This document shows positions 13,597 to 56,280 of a stretch of DNA of 64,000 nucleotides, piece by piece. Each line of letters begins with the position of its first letter. Positions within the stretch are counted from its first letter, which is position 1. Below the pieces are notes generated by a model that saw only the letters and a program-made list of their open reading frames with translations, was not told the origin of the DNA and ran no database searches. Origin of the DNA: an uncultured delta proteobacterium (GTDB lineage: Bacteria > Desulfobacterota > Desulfobacteria > Desulfobacterales > B30-G6). Made by a program: the position numbers and the translations under genes. The stretch is from NCBI GenBank assembly GCA_963823335.1, contig CAWGLD010000001.1, forward strand, positions 128,001 through 192,000. Reading direction: 5' to 3'.

Positions 13597-13738
13597 AACA
13601 GAAAGCCAGGGGAAAGGTGGTACGCTGGGCATGACCAGATGGTATCGGTAATAATTTGGTCGAGTTTGATAACTGGACTTGTCTCCATGTATAGCAACCG
13701 TACATTTTATTAATTTCAGTCGATAGGACATCTGATCA

Positions 13739-15033: not shown

Positions 15034-15172
15034 GAGCTATCTCAAAAAAGTTTTTTGACCCAATTTCTGTGTTGGTCCTTGCTTCAACTCCTCGGAATAC
15101 TTCAGTATGCCTGCGGGTTGAAGTTCGGGCCCGCCTTGAACTTGAGCCAAAACCCTTTTTTTGAGATGGCTC
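15034..15172. mobile_element. MITE/REP-like element with terminal inverted repeats (copy 1)
   Basis: GAGCTATCTCAAAAAA...TTTTTTGAGATGGCTC flanked by TA; near-identical to 47731-47872. Confidence 0.8.
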
Positions 15173-16167: not shown

Positions 16168-16294
16168 TTGTTGTTGGTCTGCCTATTCAGGTCAGCATCA
16201 AATTTATGAAAAGCGTGTCTGTCTATCAGCATCTGGTAGCGTGTGTCAATTCATTTAAAACATCCGATCAATTCCAATACTCGCCAAACAGCCC

Positions 16295-16420
16295 TGTGTT
16301 CGATTATATTCACAACTACCCAAACCTTGCCAAAACAGTTCTCCCCGTGATACCTTGGAAAAAGCCAAAGCGTATCGGCGATATTGCTATAAATTCCAAT
16401 ATGTAAAATTCTCCATGTCT
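16295..16420 (-). repeat. Recombinase-flank repeat, copy Y1
   Basis: Reverse complement reads CATGGAGA...GCCGATAC...CCAAGGTATCACGGGGAGAACTGTTTTGGCAAGGTTTGGGTA; homologous to 19776-19875 and 32673-32845. Confidence 0.7.
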
Positions 16421-16500
16421 CTGTGGCCACTGATATCTGGTTTTCAGGTTATGGGTACTAAGCGTAGAATTTGGATTTCGCACAAATCGGAGGCTTCCAT

Positions 16501-17270: not shown

Positions 17271-17398
17271 CCTGTGGTATCTAACAACAAAACGGTAGAT
17301 ATCAGACCCCTGAAAATTGCCGGTTTGCGAAAATAATCACAACAGGCGAAATCTTGCACTCATAGGCTCTTCCGTGGTACCGTGGGCATAACCAGATA
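17271..17398 (-). repeat. Recombinase-flank repeat, copy Y2 (right half intact)
   Basis: Reverse complement contains TGTGATTATTTTCGCAAACCGG...CTGATATCTACCG, matching 32776-32840 and 36784-36854. Confidence 0.75.
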
Positions 17399-17431
17399 GA
17401 GACTTTCAATTGTCGATAAGGAGGGAATATT

Positions 17432-19769: not shown

Positions 19770-19875
19770 GATACATGGGAGATATCCAGTTATCAAACGC
19801 AACCAAATTATTACCGATACCATTAGGTTATGCCCAAGGTATCATGGGGAGGACTGTTTTGGCAAGGTTTGGGTA
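19770..19875 (+). repeat. Recombinase-flank repeat, copy Y3 (left half)
   Basis: ATGGGAGATATCCAGTTATCAAAC..AAATTATTACCGATACC..CCAAGGTATC, homologous to 35786-35832 and 33597-33642. Confidence 0.8.
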
Positions 19876-20033
19876 TTCGTTAATCTGATACCGTTTCCCC
19901 GCTCGGTAAAACCCGTTTTTCCGTTCTGATCAGGCAACCTCAAGGAGGTGAATATTGGCCACCCGCTTGCACAGGCTGTACATTCTTTGCAGTTTATCCA
20001 AAGCGGACACCTCTATACATTAGCCCAACCATT

Positions 20034-20176
20034 ATTTCAAATCAGTTTAAACATACAAGACAGGAAATATTATGATATCATCACCTCGGCTGGACTCGCC
20101 TGAGCCGGTGATATCAGATAAAACTTAACAGCACATGGTTCGATGAAGAGCTCGAAAATACAATTCTTGACCCATC
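20034..20176 (+). repeat. Cyclase-array spacer A (GATATC-bounded hairpin + integrase-tail/TTGACC motif)
   Basis: Homologous to 23809-23900, 27611-27745 and 41631-41780. Confidence 0.8.
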
Positions 20177-20197
20177 CTTCCAAATCAGGTACTAATT
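20168..20197 (+). promoter_or_regulatory. Sigma-70-like promoter conserved upstream of all three cyclase genes
   Basis: TTGACC-N17-TACTAA here and at ~37309; TTGACC-N17-TATTGA at ~23894. Confidence 0.6.
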
Positions 20198-20328
20198 TTA
20201 TAGTCGCTTAAATCACACCTGCTCTGATGCTGGATCTCATTTCCAACGGACCTAACCTCTTTCTGTAACAGATATTGCATTTCCAAGACGTATCATCTTC
20301 TTCAAACCCCAACCAGAAGGTGATCCAC

Positions 20329-22086
20329 ATGCCCACAGAACCAAAGTTAACACGCAAACTCAGAGCCATCCTGTCTGCGGATGTTAAGGGCTACAGCATC
20401 CTTATGGCTGATGATGAAGTTCATACTATCCAGACGCTGAAAGCGTACAGGCAAATTATGTCTGATCTCATCCAACAGCATTCTGGTCGAGTAATCGATA
20501 AACCGGGTGACAATCTACTTGCCGAGTTTGGGAGTGCTGTTGATGCTGTTGAGTGTGCTGTACAGGTCCAAAACAGACTGAAGAAAGAAAATGCAAAGTT
20601 CGTTGGGGAAAAAAGAGTTCAGTTCCGCATTGGCGTAAATATAGGTGACATTGTTCAAGATGAAGATCGTATATACGGAAGTGGTGTAAATGTTGCTGCT
20701 CGAATTGAAGGGCTGGCTGATCCGGGTGGTATATGCGTATCCCGAAGTGTATATGACCAAGTGAAAGATAAAATCGAGTTGAGGTTTGAATACATAGGTG
20801 CGCATGAGGTCAAGAACATAAAAGGACCGGTGCGTGTGTACAGGGTCCTGATGGATTCTGACAAACCGAAACTTCTGGTTGAAAAAAGACTTGAGTTGCC
20901 AGATAAACCGTCCATTGCAGTCCTGCCATTCACTAACATGAGCGGTGATCCAAGTCAGGAGTACTTCAGTGACGGGCTTACTGAGCAGATCATCAACGGT
21001 CTTTGTAAGGTTTCAAATCTGTTCGTGATAGCACGTAACTCAAGCTTCGCCTATAAGGGAAAATCGATCAGTGCCAAGCATATCGCCAAGGAACTTGGAG
21101 TTAAATACATCCTTGAAGGAAGTGTACAGAGGGCTGGCGATCGTGTGAGGATTACAGCACAACTGATCGATGCTACAACGGACTACCATATGTGGGCAGA
21201 TAGCTATGATCGTGATCTATCAGACATATTTGCTTTGCAAGATGAAATTGCATTAAAACTCATGGGGGCCATGTCAGTAAATCTGACCTTTGGGGAGCAG
21301 GCGCGATTATGGGACGGAGGAACAACAAATATCCAGGCTTATGATATGCATATGCGAGGAAATGATTGCTTCTTTCGTAACAACAGAAAAGATAATAAAC
21401 AGGCACAGCAATTTTATCAGAAAGCTATCCACATCGATAAGGAATATGTCTCTCCATATACCATGCTGGGCTTCACACATATTCTTGATCTCCTCTATAG
21501 ATGGAGTGAGTCACCAATAAAATCCTTTGAGCAAGCTGAAACATATGCTGACAGGGCCCTTACATTGAATGATTCTTATGATATAGCCCATATGCTATTG
21601 GGTTGGATTTACCTGTTTAAAAGACAACATGATGAGGCAATTAAAAAAGGAGAGCGAGCTGTTGAACTTAATCCTAACGGAGCTGAAGCCTACGCCAATC
21701 TGGCATTCATCCTTATCTATTCAGATAGAACAGAATTAGGTATCAAATTCCTTAAATGGGCATTTCGGCTTAATCCATTACCACCCTTTCACTTTTATAT
21801 ATTTCTGGCAATAGCTCACCGAAATAATGGAGAATATGAGAAAGCAATAGCGTTAGCTGAACAGAGTATTCGTGGTAACCCAGACCAGCTTACACCGTAT
21901 CTTACATTGGCCTCTTCTTATAGTTCTTTGAACCGTGCTGAAGAAGCTCGCAAGGTTGTTGAGGTAGCCCTACGAATAGATCCGAATTTCTCTCTCGAAC
22001 ATTATGCGAAGACACTTCCATATAAGAATCAAGAAAGTTTGGATAACGATATCAATTCTCTTCGCAAAGCAGGACTACCCGAATAG
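20329..22086 (+). CDS. Class III nucleotide cyclase + TolB-N-like + TPR protein (paralog 1)
   Basis: ILSADVKGYS, PGDNLLAEF, FRIGVNIGD, GVNVAARIE; PDKPSIAVLPF module; TPRs. Confidence 0.9.
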   Translation: MPTEPKLTRKLRAILSADVKGYSILMADDEVHTIQTLKAYRQIMSDLIQQHSGRVIDKPGDNLLAEFGSAVDAVECAVQVQNRLKKENAKFVGEKRVQFRIGVNIGDIVQDEDRIYGSGVNVAARIEGLADPGGICVSRSVYDQVKDKIELRFEYIGAHEVKNIKGPVRVYRVLMDSDKPKLLVEKRLELPDKPSIAVLPFTNMSGDPSQEYFSDGLTEQIINGLCKVSNLFVIARNSSFAYKGKSISAKHIAKELGVKYILEGSVQRAGDRVRITAQLIDATTDYHMWADSYDRDLSDIFALQDEIALKLMGAMSVNLTFGEQARLWDGGTTNIQAYDMHMRGNDCFFRNNRKDNKQAQQFYQKAIHIDKEYVSPYTMLGFTHILDLLYRWSESPIKSFEQAETYADRALTLNDSYDIAHMLLGWIYLFKRQHDEAIKKGERAVELNPNGAEAYANLAFILIYSDRTELGIKFLKWAFRLNPLPPFHFYIFLAIAHRNNGEYEKAIALAEQSIRGNPDQLTPYLTLASSYSSLNRAEEARKVVEVALRIDPNFSLEHYAKTLPYKNQESLDNDINSLRKAGLPE

Positions 22087-23715: not shown

Positions 23716-23808
23716 CGGATGCGCGCCGCGCGGAGTCTTATTTCTTCGATGTGTTTCCCCGGTTTGGGAACCTGGAGTTGATGATGCTTTCGCTTATCGA
23801 GGGCGTAA

Positions 23809-23900
23809 GGGAAAATTGTTATATCGTCACCTCGGCTGGACTCGCCTGAGCCTGTGATATCCCGAGACAACATCCATGTAAAAAGCTATTCCCTTGACCC
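23809..23900 (+). repeat. Cyclase-array spacer B
   Basis: ATATCGTCACCTCGGCTGGACTCGCCTGAGCCTGTGATATC ... TTGACCCA. Confidence 0.8.
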
Positions 23901-24047
23901 ATTCTGCCAAATCAGGTATTGATTTTATAGTCGCTTAAATCACATCTGATCTGATGCTGGATCTCATTTCCAACGGACCTGAATCTCGACCTGTCCGTAC
24001 TTCCAAGACGTATCATCTTCTTCAAACCCTAACCAGAAGGTGATCTA

Positions 24048-27610: not shown

Positions 27611-27745
27611 ATTTCAGATCAAAACCTACCAAATGGGAAACATTGTGATATCGTCACCTCAGTGGAGTCACCTGAATCTTGGATATCATATCAAACCTAA
27701 CATCGCCCGGCTGTATGATGAACTCGAAAATGCAATTGTTGACCT
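27611..27745 (+). repeat. Cyclase-array spacer C
   Basis: GGAAACATTGTGATATCGTCACCTCAGTGGAGTCACCTGAA...GAACTCGAAAATGCAATTGTTGACCTA. Confidence 0.8.
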
Positions 27746-28014
27746 ATTACCTTTGCACCGGTGATCATGTACAGCGCCATAGAGTGGGCAAGCTTAACAT
27801 CAAATCCGGCCTCTTGTAGCCCATCAACAAGCCAATACCAGTTGATGGTCGCTTCTACGACTACAGGTGGCCTTGGAGAAAATGATTCAAGCGCATATAA
27901 AATGGTCCCAAGATCATTTTTTAATTTCTCTTTTAGTAAAATCTTGTCCTTGTCATCAATGACACACAGAAAAGAATTCGTTGCGTGAAGATCAATTCCA
28001 CAGTAAAATTTCAT
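27746..28014 (-). mobile_element. IS110-family transposase N-terminal fragment
   Basis: MKFYCGIDLH...VVVEATINWYWL (RuvC-like DEDD domain start); truncated after ITGAKV. Confidence 0.8.
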
Positions 28015-28841: not shown

Positions 28842-29972
28842 TTATCTATTAGGGATTTTGATTGTAAACCGGCTCCCCTCTCCCACAACCGAATCCACAC
28901 CAATGGATCCACCATGCTGAGCGATAATCTTATTGGATAGAAAAAGCCCCAACCCGGTTCCCTCACGGCCTTTTGAAGAGAAAAAAAGTGAAAACAGATT
29001 GTCCCGGGTTTCGATGTCCATCCCGATACCGTTGTCACTGATGATAAAGAAAAGATGCTTTTCGTCATTCTTGACCGAAAATACTATTTTGTGCTTTTTA
29101 TCCTCATGATTCCTCATACAGGCATCGATGGCATTCTCGAGGATGTTGATGAGGGCGGAGTGCACAAATCCAGCATCGATATGAATTTTGTCCACAGAGA
29201 AATCGAAATCTTCTACCAGGGTGATATTCAGTGTTTTGCTCTTGGGTTTAACCACCCGGATGACATCTTTGGCAAAGGTGAGAATATCAATCTCCTCACG
29301 TCTCAGATTTCTCTCTTTTGCGTAAAACAGGATGTCGCTCACCATCCGTCGAATCCGCTCCACCATCATTTTGAGGATATCACCACCTTCCTCGATCTTC
29401 ATGAGGTCTTTGGCCTTCAATCCTGATCCGAGAAGATAGAGACCGCCATCCAGACCGGTCAGCAGCCCCTTGATCCCGTGTGAAATAGATCCTACCATGA
29501 GACCCAGGTTTGAGAGGTTGTCCTGAAGTTCGGTTTTTTCACGGATGAGTCGTTCAAGGTTCTCGGTGTATTTCTGGAGTTGCTTCCGAGTGATAATCTT
29601 TTCTTCGACCCTTTTCAGGGAGATTTCGAGCGCATCGACGTTAATGGGTTTGGTAATAAAATCGGTGGCGCGATGCTTCAGACTTTTGATGGCCAGGTCT
29701 ATGTCACCGTGGCCAGTGATCATGATGACTTCCGCTTCGGGATTTTCACGTTTGATGCGCTGCAGGAGTTCGATGCCATCCATGACGGGCATCTTGATGT
29801 CGCTCAGAACAATGGGGGGCCTTTCCGACAGGAAGGTTTCCCATGCTGTTTTGCCATTTGCTGCAGTCAACACCTGGTATCCCATGTCCGACAACGTCAT
29901 ACCGAGGACATCACGGATATCTTCTTCGTCGTCCACCAGAAGAATTTTTTTCTTGTCTTGGGATGTGTTCAT
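28842..29972 (-). CDS. Hybrid response regulator / histidine kinase
   Basis: REC domain (LLVDDE, DIKMP, TKP), H-box SHGIK, NILENAIDA, DNGIG, GTGLGL. Confidence 0.88.
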   Translation of the reverse strand: MNTSQDKKKILLVDDEEDIRDVLGMTLSDMGYQVLTAANGKTAWETFLSERPPIVLSDIKMPVMDGIELLQRIKRENPEAEVIMITGHGDIDLAIKSLKHRATDFITKPINVDALEISLKRVEEKIITRKQLQKYTENLERLIREKTELQDNLSNLGLMVGSISHGIKGLLTGLDGGLYLLGSGLKAKDLMKIEEGGDILKMMVERIRRMVSDILFYAKERNLRREEIDILTFAKDVIRVVKPKSKTLNITLVEDFDFSVDKIHIDAGFVHSALINILENAIDACMRNHEDKKHKIVFSVKNDEKHLFFIISDNGIGMDIETRDNLFSLFFSSKGREGTGLGLFLSNKIIAQHGGSIGVDSVVGEGSRFTIKIPNR

Positions 29973-30073
29973 TATGTGTTCACCCAAATTTCAATGTTAA
30001 ATTCTAACTATGTGATCGAAGAACCTCGCCATAATAGCGACAACGTCATGTTTAATAAATTCATTTCACGACG

Positions 30074-32344
30074 TTATTGGGATACCGGAAACGACACAAT
30101 AAAGCAGGCGCCCTGGTCCTTGTTCGGCAAGGCCTTGATCATACCCCCGCAGTCTTTGACAATGCCGTAGCTGATCGAGAGACCTAAGCCGGTACCCGCA
30201 CCCACTTCCTTGGTGGTGAAAAAAGGTTCGAAAATCTTGTCCGCAACATGTTTTGGAATGCCGACACCGGTATCGCAGACCTCAACGATGACCCGGTCTT
30301 CGTCTTTGTAGGTTCGGAGTGTAATCCGTTCTTCATGACCGGCCCGGCTTGTAGTAGACATTTTCTCCTCGATGGCGTCCCTGGCATTGAGTAGAAGATT
30401 GATGAATACCTGTTCAAGACGACTCGGATCGGCATAGATTTTGGGCAATTCCGGGTGCAGATCCTTGATGACGGCGATGCCCCTAACTTTCAGCTGCTGG
30501 CTGAAAATTTCGAATGCATTCACGAGGACGTCGTTGATGGATATTTTCTCCATTGCCATGTCCGTTTTTCTGGCAAACTGCCGCATGTGATTGATAATCC
30601 GGGCAGCCCGGTCGACATTGCTGTCCACTTTTGTCAGCATGGTATCCAGGATCTCTTTTTTAATGGTTTCGCCGTGGTTGATCTTCCTGATGAAAAAACT
30701 ACTGGCGGTCTTGATAACGGACAGCGGTTGATTCAGTTCATGGGCAACGCCCGTTGCCATCTCGCCCAGTGTGGCCATTTTGCTGGCCTGGATTAGCTGC
30801 TGTTCCGCTTCCAGGCGTTTGGTGATGTCGCTGGTGGTGACCAGGAGGACCTCTTGTCCGGAATATTCGGAGAGGGATACGCGAATATTGACATAAAGCT
30901 CCTTGCCGGTTTTTGTCAGATGTTTAGCCTGGTTAATGATGGTATCTGTCTTTAGCCTGGCGGCGTAGGTGTCCTTTTCTTCTTTACGGAACAGGTTCAG
31001 AAAGGAACTATTGATAAGGTCACCGGTTGTAAATCCATATACCGACTCTGCACTCATGTTACAGTCCAGGATCGTGAGGGTCTGGATGTCGAGTACAAAC
31101 ACCGGATTGGGTATGTTGCTGAAGATAGCATGATATTTCTTTTCCGACCTTTCCAGATCGACTTCGAGTTGCCGCCGTTCTGAAATATCGTGAGAGATTT
31201 CCATGGCGGCAACAACATCGCCCTTATCGTTGACGATGGGTGATGTTCGTACGATCCAGTGTTTGGTGGTACCGTCTTTGTCAATGCCGGTTTCTTCCGT
31301 GGAGTAAGATTTACCATCCGCAAATGTCCATTCAACCGGACAGCGCTCACACTTTTCCGAGCGGCCTTTGTAGGCGTGGTAGCAGAAATCCCCGGGAACG
31401 GGGTCGAAACGATTCGAAAACTCTTTATTATAACGTAGCAGCTTGAAATTTCGATTCTGTACGGTAATGAGGCAGGGTACCTGTTCAAACAGCTGCATAT
31501 ATTCATCCCGCTGCTTGTTGAGGGCTGTTTCATGTTCGGCGATTTCGGATCCCATTTTATCGATGGCATCCCCTAACTGACCCATTTCATCCTTCTGTGA
31601 AAGCTCGGATTTGCTGTCATAGTCGCCTTTTGCAATGTCCTGGGTTCGGGCGATGAGTTTTTTAACGGGACGGTTGATAAACCTTAGCACGAAAAAAAAG
31701 ATGATCGTGGAAGTGAGCAGAAAAACAGATATCGACATAAAGATGATGCCGCGCTGAAGGTGGTACAAGGACGCATCTGTTTCTTCCAGAGAGACCACCA
31801 GATCCAGGGCTCCGAGAATTTTCTTGTCCCGGGGGTGGACGTGACAATCATCCGTGGAACAGCCTGGTTCGTTGCGGATAGGGCTAATGATGCCGAGGAG
31901 TCGATATCCCTTGGTATCGTTGAAGATACGCGTTCTTTCATGAAGAGCGATTTCGGAAAGGGGTGGCTCTGATCGATGGCAGATGTCGCAGGCTTCGGCC
32001 TTGATGTTCGTGGATAGATCGACTTCAGATGGTCGGTTCGAATATTTGATCTCCCCTGCCTTATTGTATATTCGGATGTTCTCTATTTCGGGAAGCCGTC
32101 CGATGTTCATGATGATCTGGTTGATGTCGTCCCTGGAATTGAGCATCATGGCGTAATGTGTTCCTAGCTGGATTGTCGTGGTCAACCGGTCGGTTGTATC
32201 GACAATGTTCTGCATGGCTTTTTCTTTCTGATAGGCTGTATTGAAATATGCCCAGATCGAGACAGACAGGATAAAGATCAGACCAACCGTCAGGATGAGT
32301 TTGAAAATGAGTCTGTCGCGGATTGTTTTTATCCAGTTGATCAT
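30074..32344 (-). CDS. Membrane sensor histidine kinase (periplasmic CxxCH, HAMP, 2 PAS)
   Basis: Two TM segments, CDICH, HAMP DEMGQL, AHELNQPL, NLLLNARDA, FEPFFTTK. Confidence 0.9.
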   Translation of the reverse strand: MINWIKTIRDRLIFKLILTVGLIFILSVSIWAYFNTAYQKEKAMQNIVDTTDRLTTTIQLGTHYAMMLNSRDDINQIIMNIGRLPEIENIRIYNKAGEIKYSNRPSEVDLSTNIKAEACDICHRSEPPLSEIALHERTRIFNDTKGYRLLGIISPIRNEPGCSTDDCHVHPRDKKILGALDLVVSLEETDASLYHLQRGIIFMSISVFLLTSTIIFFFVLRFINRPVKKLIARTQDIAKGDYDSKSELSQKDEMGQLGDAIDKMGSEIAEHETALNKQRDEYMQLFEQVPCLITVQNRNFKLLRYNKEFSNRFDPVPGDFCYHAYKGRSEKCERCPVEWTFADGKSYSTEETGIDKDGTTKHWIVRTSPIVNDKGDVVAAMEISHDISERRQLEVDLERSEKKYHAIFSNIPNPVFVLDIQTLTILDCNMSAESVYGFTTGDLINSSFLNLFRKEEKDTYAARLKTDTIINQAKHLTKTGKELYVNIRVSLSEYSGQEVLLVTTSDITKRLEAEQQLIQASKMATLGEMATGVAHELNQPLSVIKTASSFFIRKINHGETIKKEILDTMLTKVDSNVDRAARIINHMRQFARKTDMAMEKISINDVLVNAFEIFSQQLKVRGIAVIKDLHPELPKIYADPSRLEQVFINLLLNARDAIEEKMSTTSRAGHEERITLRTYKDEDRVIVEVCDTGVGIPKHVADKIFEPFFTTKEVGAGTGLGLSISYGIVKDCGGMIKALPNKDQGACFIVSFPVSQ

Positions 32345-32672
32345 GAGGGGACTCTCTTTAAGCTTTTTTTCAGGCGACAGCCCGATTTGTTTTATCTCGA
32401 AACGTATCCGTTATCGCGAGGTTCAATTTGAGGCCCAGATCTTCGCCCGGTACCCCGAGCGCCATTCCCAGGAGCTGTGGCAGATAGGGTGTTAAGTTTC
32501 ATTGCCAGATTGGTATCCGATGTCCGGAATAAAATCGAATGCGTATTAAAACTATTATTTACAAAAATGCACTATCCTGAAATTTTCAAAAGCGCTTAAA
32601 GAGACAGGAACTGGTGTTGATTGGGGCTCTAAAGAATTACACACATAGTGGTGGATAAAAATTACAGATACA

Positions 32673-32845
32673 TGGAGACAAGTCCAACTATCTGATAATT
32701 GATAAAAATGTCAGATACCATATGGTCATCGCCAAGGTATCACGGTAGGGCCTATCAATGCAATATTTGGTCTGTTGCGATTATAATCGCACACCGGTAT
32801 ATTTTCAACAGTCTGATATCTAACGAATTGTTGGATATTTCCAAC
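32673..32845 (+). repeat. Recombinase-flank repeat, copy Y4 (left + right halves)
   Basis: TGGAGACAAGTCCA ... GATACC-N16-GGTATC ... TGCGATTATAATCGCA ... CTGATATCTAACGAATTGTTGGA. Confidence 0.8.
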
Positions 32846-32850
32846 CTTTA

Positions 32851-33267
32851 TTAAGGTTTAATCCGAATTAATCTATGACCAAAAAGACAACGTCTTCTAT
32901 CACATAGATCCTCCTGCACAGTAAATTCAAACTTGCTTTTTTCTATTTTCTTTATGGTATACTTTCCTGTATTAGTTTTACACGCAGGACTTTCTAACGG
33001 AATAAAAGTAATATCTTCCCCCTCTAATCTAATTCGGCCTTTATCTATCGGTCTCGTTTCAATTTTTTCGACACTATAGGCGATTCTATAAGTTCCATCA
33101 TTATAAAATTTAATAAATCTAATATACATATCATTGTCTGTGTCTGGCTTCCAAATACCAATTAAATCCTGCAATTGAATATCAGTTTCCGTGCATTGCC
33201 CATCATCAAATGGTAAATTTAAAATTAATATAATTGCCATAAAGAAAACTGAGAATCTTAACTGCAT
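32851..33267 (-). CDS. Hypothetical exported protein (AT-rich cargo gene)
   Basis: AGGAGG RBS, signal peptide, LIGIWK beta-barrel-like start, Cys residues. Confidence 0.6.
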   Translation of the reverse strand: MQLRFSVFFMAIILILNLPFDDGQCTETDIQLQDLIGIWKPDTDNDMYIRFIKFYNDGTYRIAYSVEKIETRPIDKGRIRLEGEDITFIPLESPACKTNTGKYTIKKIEKSKFEFTVQEDLCDRRRCLFGHRLIRIKP

Positions 33268-33588
33268 AGCTTCCTCCTTTTTTATTGGCAAGATAGATCA
33301 AAATTAGTCTATAACCTTTGCACAAATCATTAAATGAAGAAAATATCCGTTTCTGCAACCGGAGGAATATAGAGGTTCAGCAAGAGAGGGAACTTAGGAA
33401 CAAATCATCTTTTTATGTCGTTTGAATTTTGTTTTGAGCTGAGAGCATCACAGAAAGTTGGAATAAATATCAATACAATGCACTATTAATTGATGTCAAT
33501 ATTATACATGACCCATTAGCTCAAAAGTAATACGTTGAAGGGCATCCATAGGTTGCATTGGCAGTCGTTTTGATCCAGTAGCCACTAT

Positions 33589-33842
33589 GTGATTAATGGA
33601 GAGATGTCCAGTTATCAAGCTCAACCAAATTATTGCCGATACAATCTGGATATATTAAGTCTATCGCATCATTAAACCTGGTGTCAAACTGTAGACCCTA
33701 ATAACGCTGGTTTGTGCCAATAAAAAAGGGGCAATCCATCGCTCGGATTCACCCCTCTAATTTGTGATTATTTTCGCACATCGGTGGTTTTTAAGGTGCC
33801 TGATAACCTTGTTTTTGTTGGAGATAGGGCAGGTTTTTATAA
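33589..33842 (+). repeat. Recombinase-flank repeat, copy Y5 (both integrase flanks joined, integrase ORF absent)
   Basis: Aligns to 35778-35877 and 36736-36862, including the terminator-like hairpin. Confidence 0.85.
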
Positions 33843-34033
33843 GCAAAAATGATTGCAGATATGCCTAAATCCCTTTAATGTCACAATCGTTTCGAGCCTG
33901 CAGTTTCTATTGCATCACTTCTGTCGTGATTATTATCGACTGTGTCTGAGTTATTGTCCTTGCCATCCTCATCCTTATGCATTGTTTCTTAGCCCGAAAA
34001 CATGCAATAATGGACAGAAGAAAGGACGCATTA

Positions 34034-35521
34034 TTATCCCTCTTTATCTCCGTCATAGATACCCAACTCCTCCTCTGCCTCTACGACGATGGATCGAACT
34101 TTTTTTAGAACATCAGCCGACAGTTGGGGAGGTTCATAGCTTTCCAGGATTTCGATCATCCTCTCATGGGAACGTTGGTATGCATCCTTGCTTCCGGCGG
34201 CTTCCCAGTCTTCCCGCATCCTCCGGTCGATCAATTGAGCCTGCGACTGCGATCGCATGTACTCAAAGGTAGTCTGGTGAGACAGATAATCCTTACCTAT
34301 TCCCATCTCCTTGATGACATCGATGGCAAGAGTAGTGTCGTTCACCGGAACTCCCTTCAATGAATGTAGAATCATCTCGGCAATCTCATGGTCCCACACG
34401 AGTTGAGCCAGGTCGAAAGTGATTCCCATCTCAAGCATTCCCAATCCGTAGATGACATTGGCACCTGCCAATGCGGGAAGAATGCCGGTGATGGTCTTTT
34501 CAAAACCCGCCTGGGCGTCGACCACCTTGCTGTCGCCCTATCCACCGGCCACAAAACATGGCAGGCTGTAGTAACGCGCTAGCCGCGCAACTGCTGCGCT
34601 GATCATGCCAGTTTCCGGTGATCCAACACTGGCCGTGGCCCTGCGCAGATCCAACGGGCATGTGGAACTGCCGTAAACGAACTGAGCTCCTTTGCGGGTC
34701 AATTGCTGCAGAACCAAACTGGACAAAAGTTCACAGTTTTGGATGATCAGTGTTCCGGCCAGGTGAACTGGCCCAGAGCCTGCCGACATTGCCATACCAA
34801 CTACGTTCAGCCCCATGTAACTCGTAGCGGCCTCCATGACGATGTCGCAGTGGTGTAACGGGAGTTTCAAGGGGCTGATGGGGCAAGTCGTAAATGACAG
34901 CAGCGGTCGTTTTTTTAGGCGCTCTCTGCCGCCTACGATGGCAGCGCACATCTCTGTAATTTTTTTGGCCTGGAAGCCGTCCACTGGGCACAGCCAGTGG
35001 TGCTTAGTGGTGTTCGTCAACGATGCTTCGGCATTATGGAGTGCCTGTGATTCCGGTGGTTTGTCGTGTGAACACATAGCCCGTTCATAAGTCTCGATAT
35101 TATCCAGGCTGTCAATGATCCTGGCCGCTTTTTCGATATCCGCCTTCGTGGTTTCCCGGTGTTCTCCGGTATAGGGGTCTACGAACATGATGCCTTCACC
35201 AAAATTGGTAAAGGTTACCCGATTATCTTCCAGCAGCACGTCATCCTCGGGTCTTCGGCCGCAGGCGTAATAGGTGCCGGGGGCGGAATTGATGGCATCT
35301 TCGATTACCCAGTGAGGAAACTTGACGACTTTATTTTTTCGATCGACGTCGCATCCCCCACCGTCAAATCGCTCCAGGGCCACTTCGTTTTCTACGAACA
35401 GTCCGACATCCTTCAGTATTTCCAGGGTTCCAAGATGGATTTCATGAACTTCGTCATCGGTCATGACGTTCAGGCTGAAACCTGAATTACGATTTTTTCC
35501 CGCTTTTAATCTCCGTTTCAT
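34034..35521 (-). CDS. mttB: Trimethylamine:corrinoid methyltransferase (MttB family) with in-frame UAG, putative pyrrolysine at codon 328
   Basis: Two in-frame ORFs joined by TAG at 34538-34540: LPCFVAGG*GDSKVVDAQAGFEK, matching the Pyl context of MttB. Confidence 0.88.
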
Positions 35522-35900
35522 AAAATCATAACCTCCTGTTTTTCTGTTATCGTTGGATTTGCCCGATTCCGCATGTGATGTTATCTTGCACTTACTTTTC
35601 TGGTATCAAGACTTTATTAAAAGCTATGTATAAGGAGAGACTATTGCAAAAAGGCCATTGGATGTTTGCTTTGATCTTACCGTATGAGTTAAACATGTCC
35701 AACCGTTTTTGTACACGGCTGTTGGTAAATAATGACGATAATCATCCGTCGGGGGTATCACAACATCTATCAAAGTGGTGATTGATGGAGACAAGTCCAG
35801 TTATCAAACTTGATGAAATTATTGCCGATACCTTTTGGATATCATAGAATAGCCTTGGCACTGGGCCATTGTCAAACATTTTAGCCAAAGGAGGTATGTC

Positions 35901-36738
35901 ATGAAAGTATCAAAAGCAGGAAAAATCTGGCTCGATTATCACCGAATCCATTCCAAAAAAAAATACGGTTAGGGCCCACTCTTTCGTCCTGGATAGTTTC
36001 AGAATCCAATTCGGTGATTACGAACTTGGAGATCTGTCCGTTGATAACATTCTGGATTTCATGAACCAGCTCACCGAAGGGCGTAAACCACAAACAAAAC
36101 GGGGTCGATTCACAAGCCTGTTAGCATTTCTTAATTTTTCCAAAAACAACCTCGATCCTGATTTCACCAATCCCTGCGACTCACCCATGCTGCGAAAACT
36201 GTTCCGGCCTAAGATAAAACCCCAATTTGATATTCTCGAAAAAGAAACCATGGACGAGATCATTTTTCGGACAGTTCATCCCAGAAACCGTTTGATGCTC
36301 GAACTCATGGCTCGGGGTGCCATGCGAATAGGTGAGGTGTTGAAAATTGTACCCAATGATATTTCTGAAAGGAAAATACTGTTAAGAGAGCCGAAAAGTG
36401 GCCGTGAGTGTGAAATGATATTTATTCCCCAAAAGGTGGCTGATCGCCTGAGAGAGTATGTCGAAACTCATAAAATCGGATTACAGGAAAGGATATTTCC
36501 GATTTGTTATGAGGCTGCTCGTTCGATAGTGGCAAAAGCTGGTAAGTTGGTTGGCATCCATCTCAGACCACATGATCTGCGACGCCATGCTGCAACATTT
36601 GCTTCCCGCTCAGGAGTGCCGCTTGAAATTGTGAGCAAGATTATTCTCCGGCATTCAAACTTATCGACCACCCAAATATATTTGGGCAGGATCAGCGATA
36701 CAGAGGCGTTGAAGTGGATTGAAACTATCTACAGCTAA
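35901..36738 (+). CDS. Tyrosine recombinase/integrase, N-terminus in a different frame across an A9 tract
   Basis: GGAGG RBS + ATG 35901; MRIGE, PKSG, HDLRRH, LRHS, TQIY catalytic motifs; A9 at 35955-35963 needs a +1 shift. Confidence 0.85.
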
Positions 36739-36749
36739 AAGGGGGAAAG

Positions 36750-36776
36750 GGTGGATTCCGTTGCCCGGAACCACCC
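36750..36776 (+). terminator. Hairpin downstream of the recombinase
   Basis: GGGTGGATTCCG-ttgcc-CGGAACCACCC; a related hairpin is retained at ~33728-33755. Confidence 0.5.
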
Positions 36777-36907
36777 TTCAAACTGCGATTATTTTCGCAC
36801 ATCGGTACTTTTTAAGGTACCTGATATCTACCGAATCGTTGGAGATTCCACAGGTTTTATAACGGATAGAAAACCTGAGGTACATAATAGCAGTTATCTG
36901 CAATACA

Positions 36908-37068: not shown

Positions 37069-37472
37069 GCCATCCGCCTGCTAATGCTATCAATATCACA
37101 GGTCCTCGCGTCCTCCATAGTTTGATGTTTTTACATATCTGAAATTGGATTAGCAACTGGATGTTAAGATCATTTCGGGCAAAATATAATCCATACATCG
37201 ATACTTCGATAATGGTTGTTATACGCATGCCGCATCCCAACAAACTTGTAGATGGCGAGTATGGAACCTGTGATATCCCGAGACAACAATCTTGAAATAG
37301 CTAATCTCTTGACCCATCCTTCCAAATCAGGTACTAATTTTATAGTCGCTTAAATCACACCTGCTCTGATACTGAATGACATCATTGAACTTGACCTGAC
37401 CTGAATCTCGACCTGTCCGTATATTTCCAAGACGTATCATCTTCTTCAAACCCTAACCAGAAGGTGATCATC

Positions 37473-40400
37473 ATGCCCAACGAACAAAAAGTCACCAGAA
37501 AACTTAGAGCCATTCTTTCTGCCGATGTCAAAGGTTACAGCATCCTCATGGCGGACGATGAAGTTTCTACAGTCCAGACTTTGAAGGATTACCGGAATAT
37601 CATGTCAAATTATATCGAACAGCATGGTGGCAGGGTTGTGGATGCTGTTGGGGATAACCTGTTGGCGGAGTTTGGCAGTGTGGTGGATGCTGTTCAGTGT
37701 GCTGTTGAAATTCAAAAGAAACTAAACGAAAAGAACAAAGATATACCTGAAAATAAGAGACTTCAGTTCCGTATTGGCGTCAATATTGGTGATGTGATTC
37801 AGGATGGTGACAGAATCTTTGGTGACGGTGTCAACATCGCAGCACGGATAGAGGGGCTTGCAGATGCTGGCGGTGTTTGTATTTCTCGGAATGCCTATGA
37901 TCATATTAGGACCAAATTAGACCTGGGTTATGAGTATCTTGGTGAACACAGTGTAAAGAATATCAGCCAACCCGTCAGGGTTTACAAGGTTCTAATGTGT
38001 TACGTTGATGCTTCTGTGGCAGGAATATAAAGCCAAAATCCGGACGGCTATCAATATAGTCAGTTTTGCCATTTATATCGCCAGTGGGTCGGCCGCGTCG
38101 ATCCGGTCATGCGCCAGGTTCATCGTGCCGGCGAAAAGATGTTTGTGGATTACGCCGGTCAGACCGTTGGTGTCTATGGCCTGGCATCAAAACAAACCCG
38201 CGAAGCTCAAATCTTTATCGCCGTTCTGGGCGCTTCAAACTACACCTATGCCGAAGCTACCTGGACACAAAAATTGCCGGACTGGATCGCTTCCCACTGC
38301 CGGGCCTATGCATATATCGCCGGTGTCCCCGAAGTGACCGTTCCGGATAATTTAAAAAGCGGTGTTAAAGATCCTGTTTTTACGAACCGGACATCAATCC
38401 CACATATCTCGATATGGCCCAACACTATGGGACCGCCGTCATCCCGGCACGGGTTGCCAAACCCAAGGACAAGGCAAAGGTGGAAACCGGCGTGCTGATT
38501 GTCGAGCGATGGATCCTGGCACGGCTTCGCAACCAACAGTTTTTCAGCCTTCAGCAACTCAATGAAGCCATCAGAAACTTATTGTTGGATCTCAACAAAA
38601 AACCGTTTCAAAAATTGCCGGGATGTTGGCAATCGACGTTCTTGGCTGTTGATAAACCGGCACTCAAGTCTTTGCCGCAAACACCCTATGAGTTTGCGGA
38701 ATGGAAAAAAGCCCGGGTAAACGTCGATTACCACATTGAAGTGGATCGACATTATTACAGTGTCCCTTACAAACTGATTAAAAAACAGATTGATGTTCGC
38801 ATCACCAACAGAACCATCGAGTGTATCTATAACAACAAAAGAGTTGCCAGCCATATCCGCGACTACCGGAAAGGATGGCATACCACCGTAAAAGAGCATA
38901 TGCCTAAGTCCCATCAGAATATGGCCGATTGGACACCGGATCGTTTCATTCGCTGGTCTCAAAAAATAGGTTTGCAAACCACCCAGCTGATCATGTCGTG
39001 CTGGGATCCTGCGGACTCTGGTAAATTGATCGGTGAAGAACCGAGGCGTCCGAGAAAGAAATGGTTTTTACCTGTAGCTGTGGTTGCCGCAATCATTGTG
39101 ACATCCATAGTTTGGCATTTTTACCAAAAAGCGACAAAGCCTGATATTGAACCTGCTTCAGTGGGGGAAATGGCTTTCAGCCTACCGGACTAAGCCTTCC
39201 CTTGCCGTTCTTCCCTTTGACAATATGAGCGGTGATCCAGAGCAGGCGTACGTGAGTGATGGCATTACAGAAGCTATAATAATGTCGGTTTCAAAAATCC
39301 GTCACCTATTTGTTATCGCCAGGAACTCCACGTTTGTTTACAAAAACAAGGCCGTGAAAGTCCAGCAAGTAGCACAGGATCTTGGGGTCCAATATGTGCT
39401 TGAAGGCAGTGTCCAGCGTTCAGGCGATAGGTTACGTGTTACAGCCCAGCTTATCGATGCGTTGAATGGCCGCCATATTTGGGCTGAACAATATGATCGA
39501 GACCTGAAAGATCTCTTTGACATGCAAGATGAGATCACTATGGAGATTTTAGAAGCCATGCGGGTCAAACTCATCGAAGGGGAGCAAATATCAAAGGCCA
39601 AACGTCCCCAAAATGTTCAATCTGCTCTGAAGATTTATCAAGCTCAGGCTTACAGCCTTCGATTTACGCCGGAAGCAATGGTCACGGCAAAAAAGATAGC
39701 AGAAGAAGTGGTGGCCGTAGAACCTGAGTACGGGGAAGCTTACTATATCCTATCGACAATTCACATGATGGAGATGTGGTATGGCACGGGTAAGTCACCA
39801 AAGGATTCGCTTTTAAAAGCCACAGAGTATGCAGAGAAAGCTATTTCCCTTGATGATTCTCTTTCCCAGGCCATGGGCATTCTTGGGTATTGCTATGGAT
39901 TAAGCAGACAGTGGGACGAATCTGTTGCCGTAGCAGAGAAAGGCGTCGCAATCGATCCAAATGGAGCCGATGCTCACGCTTGGCTGGGTAATTGTCTGAA
40001 TTTTGCATATCGGTACAAGGACGCCATACCCTTTTTCGATAAAGCCATGAGACTTAATCCTTATCCGCCTCCGTGGTATTATTTTACGCTCGCCGTTTCG
40101 CATATTGGTCTGGGTCGATATGAGGAGGCTATTACCTTGCTGGAAAAGTCCTTATCTGTCTCGCCGAACAACCTTACAGCGTATTTGACTATTATACGAC
40201 CATATCTGTACACGGGCAGAGAGGATGAAGCTCGTGCAGCAGCTCAAAGAGTGTTACAGATCAATCCGAAGTTTTCAGTAGAAGATTGGGTTAGTAAAAT
40301 GCCTTACAAGGAACCGGGATATCCTGAGAAGGTGGCTGAGGCTTTGTACAAGGCGGGTATACCAGAAACACCACCACTCCCTCTACCCGATAAACCCTCA

Positions 40401-41630: not shown

Positions 41631-41780
41631 ATTTCAAATCAGCTTAAACCCGCAGAACAGGAAACATTGTGATATCGTCATCTCAGTGGACTCGCCTGAA
41701 CCTGATATCATATGAAACCTTAACCGCATGGTTCGATGAAGAACTCGAAAATGCAAATGTTGACCTACTCGTTGACCTTT
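41631..41780 (+). repeat. Cyclase-array spacer E ending in GTTGACCT direct repeats (candidate integrase arm sites)
   Basis: ...ACCGCATGGTTCGATGAAGAACTCGAAAATGCAAATGTTGACCTACTCGTTGACCT, ~150 bp from the tRNA 3' end. Confidence 0.75.
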
Positions 41781-43081: not shown

Positions 43082-43325
43082 ATTCCGGCAACTTTCTCAT
43101 GCAAGTCTGTTTTTCCATTTACTCAACGGTCGATCCTCTTACGTCAGGATTATTTTCTCTTCTATAACCCGCATGAATACTGCTTTATCACAATTATCTA
43201 AAATATCAAATATATTGACACTATAGATGCCTTATGATACGTTCTTCGGGATAAATTTACCCAAATCCTGCACCATGGGTGACCGTCCGGGCGGCCTATT
43301 TTTCGATCCAAACACGGGGGATGAC

Positions 43326-44873
43326 ATGGTAGATAAAGACGATCTCTTTCAGGAAGAAGACGGCAGCACGCCTCAAGACCATGACAGAGATGAACCTCTT
43401 ACCGACGAAGACGACGATATCATCGACCTTTTAGATACGGTTGAAATGCCTGTGCAAGATATCGAGGAAGACATCATCGAGCTCGAAGATATGGTCGAGG
43501 CGCCTGTCGACGAGATTATAGAGCTTACAGAAGAAACCCAAGGGCCAGTGGCGGACGATGACGTTCTCGATCTGACAGAGGTGGTCACCGACGAGGACGA
43601 ACCGCGAGACGATATTCTGGAACTCACCGAGATCGCCGATACAGATGATACACAGGATGATGGGGTTCTGGATCTCACCCAAAAGACGGCAGGGTTCGAC
43701 CTGGATGATGAGATCATCGATCTGACGGAAGCCACGGCTGATGACAAGGTTTTCGACCTTTTAGATACAGCTGAAATACCGGCCCAGAACATGGCCGAAG
43801 ACATCATCGATCTGGAGAAACCCGCGGCTGATGACGAGGTTTTCGACCTTTTAGATACGGTTGAAATACCGGCCCAGGGCATGACCGAAGACATCATCGA
43901 TCTGGAGGAACCCGCGGCTGATGACGAGGTTTTCGACCTTTTAGATACGGTTGAAATACCGGCCCAGAACATGACCGAAGACATCATCGATCTGGAGGAA
44001 CCCGCGGCTGATGACGAGGTTTTCGACCTTTTAGATACGATTGAAATACCGGCCCAGGGCATGACCGAAGACATCATCGAACCGGCGGACACAACCCAGG
44101 AGTTTGCGTTTGACGCCGATGATAACGATGACATTCTCAGTTCAACAGAAACCCCGGCCGATAGCAAAGTCTTTGACTTTTTGGACACGATTGAAATCCC
44201 CGCCCAGGACACAGCCGAAGACATCATCGAACCGGCGGACACGGTTCAGGAGCTTGACTTTGCTGCCGAAAACGACAGCCTCGGTCTAACAGATGCCGTG
44301 GCCCAGGACGATATTGACGAAGCAGCCTTGGATCCGGATGAACCTGATGAACCCGTGGAGACAGATCAGGAAGAACGCTTTGAAGAAACCATTGCGCTGC
44401 CATCATCCGGATACGAAGAAGACAAGGAGCTGTTGGAACTCATCGATGATATCCAGGCAACCCTCAACGATGAACCCCTATCCGCCCGCGTCGGTGACCA
44501 GGAGAGCACAGCTCCGACGGATGAAGTCATTGATACGGACACTCTTGAAGAAAATGCCGACGCATACACCTTTCTGAATGACGATGATCTCATCGAAGAC
44601 GGGGGCGTACCGGAATCTGAATCTGAATTCGTCGACCACCTTGGTATCGATCTCACCTCGGAGATCGAAAGAAAGGCATTGGAGGAAAACCAGGAAGCGG
44701 TCATGGAAGATGTCAAACCAACCAAAGACATGGAATCAGGCATCGCACCGGGCGCCGTGGAGACAGCCGTCAAACAGGCCCTTACCGAAATGCTGGCGGA
44801 TGAGAACAATCCACTGGCCAAGGCCATTGAAAATGCGGTCAGAAAAGCATTGGGTCAAGGGGAAGATACTTAA
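43326..44873 (+). CDS. Highly acidic, disordered repeat protein with a helical C-terminus (PopZ/RomR-like candidate)
   Basis: D/E-rich, repeated DII(D/E)L and DDVLDLT motifs, amphipathic C-terminal helices; start assumed at the ATG at 43326. Confidence 0.7.
   Translation: MVDKDDLFQEEDGSTPQDHDRDEPLTDEDDDIIDLLDTVEMPVQDIEEDIIELEDMVEAPVDEIIELTEETQGPVADDDVLDLTEVVTDEDEPRDDILELTEIADTDDTQDDGVLDLTQKTAGFDLDDEIIDLTEATADDKVFDLLDTAEIPAQNMAEDIIDLEKPAADDEVFDLLDTVEIPAQGMTEDIIDLEEPAADDEVFDLLDTVEIPAQNMTEDIIDLEEPAADDEVFDLLDTIEIPAQGMTEDIIEPADTTQEFAFDADDNDDILSSTETPADSKVFDFLDTIEIPAQDTAEDIIEPADTVQELDFAAENDSLGLTDAVAQDDIDEAALDPDEPDEPVETDQEERFEETIALPSSGYEEDKELLELIDDIQATLNDEPLSARVGDQESTAPTDEVIDTDTLEENADAYTFLNDDDLIEDGGVPESESEFVDHLGIDLTSEIERKALEENQEAVMEDVKPTKDMESGIAPGAVETAVKQALTEMLADENNPLAKAIENAVRKALGQGEDT
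43737..44080 (+). repeat. 90-bp (30-aa) coding tandem repeat, about 4 units
   Basis: ADDEVFDLLDTVEIPAQ(G/N)MTEDIIDLEEPA repeated. Confidence 0.9.
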
Positions 44874-47730: not shown

Positions 47731-47872
47731 GAAGCTATCTCAAAAAAGTTTTTTGGCCCAATTTCTGTGTTGGTCCCTTGCTTCAACTCCTCGGAATACT
47801 ACAGTATACCTGCGGGTTGAAGTTCGGGCCCGCCTTGAACTTCAACCAAAACCCTTTTTTTGAGATGGCTTC
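47731..47872. mobile_element. MITE/REP-like element (copy 2) abutting the nadC start codon
   Basis: GAAGCTATCTCAAAAAA...TTTTTTGAGATGGCTTC; near-identical to 15034-15172. Confidence 0.8.
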
Positions 47873-55922: not shown

Positions 55923-56100
55923 GGGGTTCCTCCCTCTATTTCACTATCTGTTTAGTTTAAGCTGACGAATGGAGCATGTTAAGATTCGTAACAGCTCCAA
56001 ACGCGGTGTGGATGGTTCGGAAGGATAGAGGGGTAGAGGGGTGGAGGGTTGGAGGGTAGCAGACAGTTATCCGCCATAAGCAGTAAATTGCTTTCAGCTA

Positions 56101-56280
56101 CCCTTCAACCCTCAGACCCTGCTCTTTTCTCTCCGACCCTGGTGTTCCCCCTCCAAACCTCCAACCCTTCAACCCTCAGACCCTGCTCTTTTCTCTCCGA
56201 CCCTGGTGTTCCCCCTCCAAACCTCCAACCCTTCAACCCTCAAACCCTGCTCTTTCCCCTCCAACCCTTCACCCCTCAGA
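56101..56280. repeat. 64-bp pyrimidine-rich tandem repeat (2 full units + partial)
   Basis: CCCTTCAACCCTCAGACCCTGCTCTTTTCTCTCCGACCCTGGTGTTCCCCCTCCAAACCTCCAA at 56101 and 56165. Confidence 0.85.

Follow-up and report, generated by a model that had tools for sequence, protein, structure and literature searches.

The 64,000-nucleotide stretch analysed here, referred to as the window, is C1:128001-192000 of G000, the genome (4.37 Mb in 11 contigs) of a sulfate-reducer from sediment that belongs to the Desulfobacterales. It contains the gene for a tyrosine recombinase, flanked by the two halves of a repeat of about 170 nucleotides (nt) which is named REP. The same halves recur joined, without the recombinase, behind unrelated genes in the window and elsewhere in the genome. 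The best reading of these data is that REP and the recombinase form a cassette system which operates in the manner of an integron with other components. In this non-integron system the nested Xer-like enzyme would recombine core sequences at the two ends of REP, a reading to which a probability of about 0.65 is assigned. An earlier note on the window had proposed either such a system or a minimal mobile element with miniature derivatives; both proposals fit the data and the first fits best. The genome-wide census of REP, the breakpoints at both cores, one breakpoint resolved to the base in a metagenome contig of 99% identity, and the counts of a recoding site are new here.

An iterated nhmmer search of the genome, seeded with 32660-32850, returned 74, 86 and finally 87 copies of REP in three rounds, 49 of them full-length, with a mean column identity of 78%; such a number greatly exceeds what chance would give. 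The search recovers all the copies on which the earlier note was based, those at 32673 and 33589 and the partial ones at 16295, 17271 and 19770, and a separate repeat search returned the same window families (D10 and D14). The 87 copies fall into 19 clusters. Ten clusters with at least three copies hold 73 of them and span 154 kb, or 3.5% of the genome, the largest array comprising 19 REPs within 36 kb of contig 7. Orientation is uniform in eight of these ten clusters, with one odd copy in each of the other two. Five clusters are singletons, and all five are partial REPs.

The DNA between REPs is strongly organised with respect to strand. In the 65 co-oriented inter-REP segments, whose median length is about 1.7 kb, 113 open reading frames (ORFs) of at least 70 amino acids (aa) lie on the cargo strand and 29 on the opposite strand, and 38 of the segments contain exactly one cargo-strand ORF. 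The median distance from stop codon to REP is 71.5 nt, with 49 of 68 distances between -30 and +150 nt. Because the ORFs are strand-biased and their stop codons come close before REP, the unit is read as one or more genes followed by a REP, on the strand opposite to the REP profile. The cargo is diverse: 112 array ORFs match 129 Pfam families (E<=1e-5), no family occurring in more than three ORFs. It includes TPR proteins, response regulators, cyclases, MttB, HU, beta-lactamase-fold proteins, Lcl_C and two group II intron reverse transcriptases. Array layout and unrelated families alike bear out the proposal of single unrelated cargo genes on the strand opposite to the recombinase.

The ends of REP are sharply defined. 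Aligned copies start with GAT-NN-ATGGAGA and finish with GTTGGAG(A), conservation being lost abruptly beyond either side, so that the ends are direct, not inverted, repeats of TGGAGA. In the window this hexamer bounds the recombinase-bearing copy (35786-35791 and 36840-36845) and the longer of the gene-free copies (33597-33602 and 33819-33824), just where the earlier note had placed it, and it opens the shorter one (32673-32678). The two modules beside the recombinase are separated by 940 nt holding that gene. Five long REP variants retain 38 nt that follow the recombinase stop codon: window positions 36746-36826, which include a hairpin directly after that codon, align with 33725-33805 and with four other long copies. 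The retention of this hairpin indicates that REP and the recombinase unit are related by deletion, in line with the miniature derivatives that had been envisaged.

The body of REP is rich in short palindromes (ACCATCTGGT, GGTACC, ACCGGT and GATATC), a composition suggestive of DNA that proteins bind in double-stranded form. Like dif or lox sites, the left core may be divided into two inverted arms of 10 bp with a centre of 6 bp between them (GATACATGGA-GATAAG-TCCAGTTATC). This centre varies among REPs and has remained with the REP body in a duplicated unit described below, which fits exchange at the boundary between left arm and centre. Two dyads previously offered as candidate binding sites are present, but in less regular form than supposed: GATACC-N16-GGTATC is perfect only in a minority of REPs, most having GGTACC, and TGCGA-N6-TCGCA reads TGTGA...TCGCA in 28 of 37 aligned copies.

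Several comparisons indicate that units of gene and REP move. On contig 7 the segment C7:213586-214516 is duplicated 13.4 kb away in the same array, at 226995-227925, with 99.7% identity over 931 nt. The identity begins inside TCTCCATGTATC, which closes two unlike upstream REPs, covers the gene and its entire own REP, and ends right after the same motif, TCTCCATGTATC. Comparison between species drew on five genomes of the same genus and on one conserved flanking stretch (28850-32487). This stretch is 82-89% identical in the congeners, while single array units reach 90-98% at unrelated places. The mttB unit of the window (33763-35611) is 97% identical in G004, a congener of another species, which also matches C7:209383-210222 (95%) and C7:230415-231157 (92%); C7:208278-209242 is 98% identical in G007, and C9:45350-46501 is 95% identical in G005. 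For three units that adjoin one another in G000, the best relative lies in a different genome each time.

These matches end, for the most part, close to the ends of REP. They start 11 nt inside the REP left end in three cases and 27 nt inside it in one, and at the right end in two (offsets 0 and -1); they stop at +1, -5, +22, -31 and -45 relative to the right end, with one further end at the left end. Aligned base by base, the segment shared with G007 runs from ...TCTCCAT-N-TATC to ...GATTTCT/CC, and the homology does not continue outside it. The sharpest breakpoint comes from a metagenome contig (L112), which is 99% identical to 35533-33816, comprising mttB and a 210-nt tail. It departs from the window right after TCTCCAAC, the right-end core as read on the gene strand (33824-33817), and beyond this motif enters a gene without a match in G000. 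G004 has the same mttB unit as this contig and then runs into a different REP copy. Two REPs on different contigs of G000 are 98% identical with unrelated flanks on either side. Taken together, the breakpoints of the duplicate, the cross-species matches, the contig and the REP pair locate points of exchange at both TGGAGA-type motifs. The earlier choice of TGGAGA as a candidate crossover core is in keeping with this, since homology between copies, between species and with the metagenome contig stops at the motif of either end.

The same evidence can be read with the emphasis reversed, the primary unit being the recombinase-bearing repeat of about 1.07 kb. This would be a minimal tyrosine-recombinase element which integrates at TGGAGA-like targets with its core duplicated. 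The REPs of 170-233 nt would then be internally deleted derivatives resembling miniature inverted-repeat transposable elements (MITEs), genes between two copies would be moved only as a by-product, as happens with composite elements, and the arrays would be insertion graveyards. REP and the recombinase unit indeed coincide in both ends and in the direct core repeat, and the five long variants keep the 38-nt remnant. The 98%-identical REPs with unrelated flanks are as expected if REP moves alone. Moreover, the 98%-identical gene segment in G007 is without this REP on either side, REP occurs in 0 of 80 metagenome mttB loci, and the contig of 99% identity has non-REP DNA past the core, as though REP had joined a gene already in place. 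The distribution of REP argues against this account, however. The copies are not dispersed but gathered in ten arrays, the isolated ones are all partial, and their orientation is tied to the strand of the cargo. Tandem REP-REP joints are absent from the genome census, in which the smallest gap is 447 nt, and the comparison of congeners yielded no case of simple presence or absence of REP between otherwise collinear flanks. Gene-plus-REP units are also inherited together, and a circle of 165 bp would be a poor substrate for a tyrosine recombinase. A minimal element as the primary unit is accordingly considered unlikely, if far from negligible.

Returning to the cassette reading, the enzyme at its centre belongs to the Xer-like tyrosine recombinases but scores below the cut-offs of the Xer family models. 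Its best NCBIfam model is the archaeal XerA-type NF040815 (102 bits, cut-off 220), ahead of the XerC/XerD-type models TIGR02225 (42 bits, cut-off 329.6) and TIGR02224 (38.6 bits, cut-off 335). The integron-integrase model TIGR02249 gives 34.6 bits against a cut-off of 265. The nearest solved structures in a search of PDB sequences are XerA (4a8e, 1e-14) and then XerD, no IntI structure being among the matches at E<=0.001; both kinds of search agree with the earlier description of a non-IntI enzyme. The protein contains the stretches ARG..R, K-SG, HDLRRH, RH and Y-LG, all in invariant columns of ten homologues, which we take to be active-site residues. Two further, ordinary Xer-like genes (XerC/D-like) lie elsewhere in the genome, and a second, truncated copy of the nested recombinase heads the array on contig 9.

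The association of enzyme and repeat recurs in relatives. The nested unit is conserved as a block, with 93% identity over 1045 nt in G001, where the match starts at the ATGGAGA of position 35785, and 80% over 1122 nt in G015; in both the neighbours differ. In all three genomes the recombinase is nested at the same position of REP, between profile positions 65 and 111. Its place in the array varies: it stands at the head in the window and on contig 9, at the tail in G015 and in mid-array in another locus (L036). There the flanks recur joined and free of the gene as five left and four right parts, with a spacing of 1.2-1.9 kb. Joined copies without the gene are likewise found four times in a further locus (L056), eleven times genome-wide in Desulfosarcina variabilis and four times in D. 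widdelii. More distant lineages have the same plan about 115 nt upstream of the gene with another core, GATAT-CTTGCCA in many and ATTGAGA or CTTGGCG in others, and one genome (G037) has TTGCCA at both ends of the unit. A core hexamer can be named upstream in 31 of 58 loci, and seven of these 31 repeat it 30-200 nt past the stop codon, where about 1.3 would be expected. The REP profile of G000 finds copies in only seven of 80 homologous loci because the repeats differ between lineages.

In a sample of 301 genomes from the order, 55 have relatives of the recombinase, spread over 37 of 149 genera; one to five copies are usual, and no match was found in plasmid or phage collections. As a separate observation, relatives of 60-64% identity lie on contigs binned as Calditrichia, Acidobacteriota and Draconibacterium (L020, L041 and L060), which reflects either transfer outside the Desulfobacterales or mis-binning.

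REP may also influence the expression of its neighbours. Promoter-like -35/-10 pairs occur on the - strand in the right modules of three REPs, at 32780-32808, 33767-33794 and 36788-36815. All three point to the next gene (11/12, 9/12 and 9/12 consensus matches, the best site being TTGAAA-17-TATAAT), and their -10 hexamer lies in the loop of the TGTGA/TCGCA dyad, a loop that reads TTATTT or TTATAA depending on the copy. From these matches it appears that REP may feed transcription into the downstream gene.

Such sites might instead mark REP as a host regulatory or structural element (a 3'-end or terminator signal, a promoter or a protein-binding site) which labels variable islands and spreads by homologous recombination and gene conversion, the recombinase having merely landed in one copy. 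The promoter-like sites in three of three window REPs are compatible with this, as are the palindromes, which are typical of protein-binding DNA, the persistence of arrays in genomes without the recombinase and two breakpoints interior to REP at the edge of its most conserved block. Against a chance landing, the recombinase is nested at one position in G000, G001 and G015, and distant lineages whose repeats differ in sequence show what reads as an identical layout. Furthermore, most breakpoints lie not inside REP but at its outermost ends, the points at which copies cease to be homologous, and REP has neither a consensus RNA fold nor an Rfam family. A host element of this kind is considered improbable.

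A second unusual feature of the recombinase concerns its reading frame. The gene had been described as a single in-frame gene at 35901-36738, which does not hold: frame 0 from the ATG at 35901 ends after 23 codons, the body lies in frame +1, and the junction coincides with a run of nine A residues (A9). The N-terminus nonetheless matches full-length homologues of 278 aa, which read MKVSKA..IW.DYH..HSKKNTVR as though the run were A8. When one genome was scanned for each species, at least 463 loci turned out to encode a relative. Of the best 80 of these, 75 had both parts of the gene recognisable, and 45 of the 75 need a +1 shift at the same A run, which is A9 in 29, A8 preceded by C in 11, A7 in three and A6 in two. 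A further 25 loci are in frame, 22 of them without a run longer than five, and five are shifted by two. Among the shifted loci, across which protein identity is 56-80%, are the two copies examined from Desulfosarcina widdelii PP31, whose genome is finished (region 594-616 kb), and the one of D. variabilis Montpellier.

Conservation extends over the N-terminal 20 codons as well as the body, and the shift falls at the same codon in homologous loci. This looks like recoding rather than decay, because random decay would not keep a single site of insertion or deletion with both frames open. Bacterial RNA polymerase slips on runs of nine A or T, and several insertion sequence (IS) transposases are made by +1 transcriptional realignment, according to a review (PMC5009743). 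RNA-polymerase slippage is most likely the route here too, the alternative being heritable on/off switching through replication slippage. The likeness to the cases of transcriptional realignment (Roseiflexus IS630; runs of nine A or T) lies in the conserved run of 7-9 A and the trans-frame product; the gene here differs in being a tyrosine recombinase. As in recoding generally, a conserved slippery homopolymer stands at a conserved frame junction with both frames open in divergent homologues. A literature search found no case of homopolymer slippage in a tyrosine recombinase.

Together these observations can be drawn into a mechanism. Unrelated cargo would be held in co-oriented arrays, each gene or short group of genes being followed by a junction REP of about 170 nt, which would be bounded by two direct cores, ATGGAGA toward the next cassette and TTGGAGA toward its own gene. 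A 278-aa Xer-like tyrosine recombinase would exchange DNA at these cores, so that gene segments, REPs or gene-plus-REP units might be excised, moved between arrays and passed between species. Events between two left or two right cores would move gene-plus-REP units; events between a left and a right core would move genes alone or REPs alone. The enzyme would act in trans on about ten arrays, most of them lacking a recombinase of their own, and slippage of RNA polymerase at the A9 run would restore the frame and keep the enzyme scarce. We infer from the features set out above that the nested enzyme is the catalyst, that its substrates are double-stranded sites rather than folded strands, and that slippage restores its frame.

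A number of observations weigh against this scheme. The recombinase copy of the window could be dead and the second copy, on contig 9, is truncated; G004 and G005 have no full recombinase despite their 14 to 20 or more REPs. The expected co-occurrence of repeat and enzyme stood only in part: among 40 relatives, kin that are not independent, six have both, five have REP alone and seven the recombinase alone. Most of these seven have copies of 44-63% identity, with repeats of their own that would escape BLAST. Of 74 homologous recombinase genes, 14 have some flank repeat within 10 kb and one has a joined copy, too few to establish that arrays adjoin the gene elsewhere. The core hexamer named upstream was not found downstream in 24 of 31 loci, and the longest word shared between upstream and downstream flanks does not differ significantly from permutation (31 of 60 loci versus 24.6 +/- 3.7). 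Some left-module variants lack the inverted right arm TCCAGTTATC. Two breakpoints, at 33763 and near 210153 on contig 7, lie inside REP at the left edge of its most conserved block, TGTGATTATTTTCGCACA, and could stem from a third site or from homologous exchange inside the block; at its 5' end (35611) the shared mttB unit does not stop at a core. Finally, no circle, empty site or excision joint was seen in 22 public runs, represented by short assembled contigs only. The joints listed in these contigs (for example 32739 to 33762 and 32807 to 36820) stem from other REP copies, each aligned in two parts, and the loose ends at 33596 also belong to other copies; among the RNA contigs listed, none spans the A run. 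Synteny with the five congeners extends only over 28850-32487 and the genomes are rearranged beyond it, so that no clean empty site can be read; in G000 the array side truncates the neighbouring frame.

The coordinates of the window features are given in Table 1. Its cargo genes, mttB and an ORF of 146 aa, lie on the - strand, and the recombinase lies on the + strand, pointing away from them. The stop codon of the 146-aa ORF is 16 nt from REP, and its product has no Pfam match at E<=0.01. The mttB gene has an in-frame TAG and a pyrrolysine insertion sequence (PYLIS) element, and PylS is encoded elsewhere in the genome (C2:79183-79914; TIGR02367, 326.6 bits against a cut-off of 178). Since both PylS and an mttB of this kind are present, this metagenome-assembled Desulfobacterales genome probably decodes pyrrolysine. 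A pyrrolysine-dependent methyltransferase is here part of a mobile unit which is 97-99% identical between genomes.

Table 1. Window features of the REP system and its cargo (positions are those of the window)
Feature	Position	Strand	Evidence and remarks
Partial REP	13617-13692	-	nhmmer
Partial REPs, small opposite-strand array	16291-16421, 17285-17399	-	nhmmer
Partial REP (profile 2-113)	19770-19880	+	nhmmer
REP, complete form of 170 nt	32667-32836	+	nhmmer (145 bits) and sequence; after cargo 2, last of small array; ATGGAGA at 32672-32678, right end GTTGGAT (32830)
Cargo 2, 146-aa ORF	32851-33291	-	ORF list; labelled an exported hypothetical in the earlier note
REP, variant of 233 nt	33591-33824	+	nhmmer; after mttB; ATGGAGA at 33596-33602, GTTGGAGA at 33817-33824
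Cargo 1, trimethylamine methyltransferase mttB	34034-35521	-	Pfam PF06253 on both halves
In-frame TAG of mttB	34538-34540	-	
PYLIS element	34441-34540	-	Rfam RF02510, 73 bits
Left module of recombinase-bearing REP (profile 2-65)	35780-35843	+	nhmmer; opens GATTG-ATGGAGA, core ATGGAGA at 35785-35791
Promoter-like TTGCCG-17-TAGAAT	35822-35850	+	Consensus match only (9/12); partly within left module, ahead of recombinase
Recombinase, frame 0, first 21 codons (MKVSKAGKIWLDYHRIHSKK...)	35901-35972	+	Three-frame translation; stop at 35970-35972
A9 run	35955-35963	+	Sequence and translation; frame must move +1 (one A fewer in message)
Recombinase body, frame +1, Xer-like tyrosine recombinase	35962-36738	+	Pfam PF00589, 8e-18
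G+C-rich hairpin	36748-36777	+	Sequence; directly after recombinase stop; remnant in long REP variants
Right module of recombinase-bearing REP (profile 111-171)	36784-36845	+	nhmmer and sequence; terminates in GTTGGAGA

Several further features of the window and of REP surroundings deserve mention. Between the shared mttB unit and the recombinase-bearing REP lies a 170-nt stretch (35611-35785) which is missing from the G004 copy. Within it, TCTCCTTATAC resembles a decayed left core, and the stretch may be what is left of a cassette since lost. Just outside the right end of several REPs of G000 stands a small hairpin element rich in G+C (GGAGGCTCCGCGAGCTA...GGGCTCGC), which recurs in G007 (locus L104, about 1900-2000) between a shared cassette and the element after it; this is apparently another intergenic repeat family, unrelated to REP. 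Paralogues with adenylate/guanylate-cyclase domains share 5' regions of 73-98% identity (families D5-D8, D11, D12, D15, D17 and D18; 20049-20548, 23808-24045, 27622-27746, 37308-37692 and 41646-41767). One such set begins right beside the recombinase-bearing REP, another beside the partial REP at 19770. A 139-nt stretch unrelated to REP occurs at 15035-15171 and, 32.7 kb away, at 47733-47870 (families D13 and D19; 96-98% identity) and may be the end of another mobile element. The ORF at 43227-44873 contains five or six copies of a 90-nt tandem repeat at 43410-44269 (61-93% identical), and a 64-nt tandem triplet lies at 56100-56291, two of its copies being identical.

It is attractive to consider a wider role for the system, a view offered tentatively and with slightly less than even confidence. 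The Desulfobacterales, and occasionally other sediment bacteria, would possess a second, independently evolved gene-capture system, a 'Xer-type integron', in which a recoded, self-nested recombinase moves cassettes among many arrays through short double-stranded cores flanking a 170-nt element. The element would settle at a core-like sequence behind an ordinary gene, making a cassette of it, as mttB suggests, and might provide the following cassette with its promoter, with the slip at the A run acting as a throttle that stabilises the arrays. The folded single-stranded attC sites and the special integrase of integrons are regarded as their key inventions. If the present reading is correct, the same array architecture has arisen from a plain Xer-like enzyme and unfolded sites; cassette platforms would then have evolved more than once, and a simpler model would be at hand of how genes become cassettes. 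It would also explain a sizeable variable fraction of sulfate-reducer genomes, the arrays here carrying a pyrrolysine-type methyltransferase, signalling proteins and many unknowns over their 154 kb, and a tyrosine recombinase would join the few genes whose expression passes through a slip at a conserved homopolymer. The presence of the system in the cultured strains Desulfosarcina widdelii PP31 and D. variabilis makes it directly testable.

The closest parallel among known systems is the integron, together with the clusters of attC sites lacking an integron-integrase (CALINs). As in these, mostly single, unrelated genes stand in co-oriented arrays, with a recombination-site repeat behind every gene; many arrays lack their own recombinase, as in CALINs; the repeats are fairly homogeneous within a genome; and cassettes are common to species at an identity above that of the one flanking stretch compared. 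In this window the tyrosine recombinase is, moreover, transcribed away from the cassettes. An integron-like layout might mean that these are ordinary CALINs with unusually long attC sites, the true IntI lying in the 6% of the genome that is unassembled (completeness is 93.9%). In favour of this, a minority left-module variant, including the copy at 32673, has GTCCAAC, and the end at 32830 reads GTTGGAT. Yet no IntI was found in the whole genome, where the best match to TIGR02249 is a Xer gene at 88.5 bits, and the nested enzyme itself falls far short of that cut-off. The left and right variants of REP do not covary, its ends are direct, and both attC boxes (RYYYAAC ... GTTRRRY) occur in none of the 44 full copies, in either orientation, so that the earlier remark that the repeats lack attC ends holds. 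Ordinary integron arrays are therefore regarded as a very improbable explanation.

Folding analyses likewise give no attC-like fold of REP. RNAalifold on 37 copies gave -0.1 kcal/mol, with 12 local pairs in two short stems, and alignment-based folding of either strand with RNA or DNA parameters yields local hairpins only, no hairpin being conserved. Folds of single copies as DNA pair the REP ends in 24 of 88 strands, without covariation, and apparently compensatory left-module variants proved to be alternative sequences with no common structure. A single varying pair in the TGTGA/TCGCA stem (UG in 28, CG in five and UA in four) is suggestive but remains one case.

The system thus differs from integrons in most of its parts. 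Its enzyme is of Xer type and scores far too low for the IntI model; REP, of about 170 nt, has no attC hairpin and carries direct instead of inverted terminal motifs; exchange is seen at both repeat ends, not at a single G/TT point; and the recombinase requires a frame correction at an A run. A fixed platform of intI, attI and the promoter Pc at the array head is absent, the recombinase gene lying inside the repeat at a position that varies between arrays. IntI, by comparison, is described as a hybrid that recombines single- and double-stranded partners (PMC4792948). A survey of tyrosine recombinases sets out an integron-like subgroup and a Desulfovibrio-only IntDes subgroup, neither of which fits; its supplementary classification tables might place the present clade (PMC8138268). 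A literature search found no description of such a cassette system.

Parallels can also be drawn with Xer-dependent elements and with transposons. With Xer/dif, the integrative mobile elements exploiting Xer (IMEX) and the pdif modules of Acinetobacter plasmids, the system shares a two-domain Xer-type enzyme and modules bounded by short sites, and its left core, if read as 10-bp arms and a 6-bp centre, resembles dif. Unlike Xer/dif, its recombinase scores far under the Xer family cut-offs in a genome with separate XerC/D-like genes, and there are 87 sites in arrays rather than one, in direct order and with a conserved 170-nt body; the system has no match among plasmid records. Shufflons and other invertible cassettes are rejected, the sites standing in direct order within arrays. 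With pairs of IS and MITE it has in common one gene-bearing copy and many short copies that share both ends of the putative autonomous element, the long variants keeping a remnant of the 3' flank of the gene. The terminal inverted repeats, target-site duplication and dispersed insertion of MITEs are not found, the enzyme is a tyrosine recombinase and not a DDE or HUH transposase, and the copies are clustered and strand-locked to their neighbour genes.

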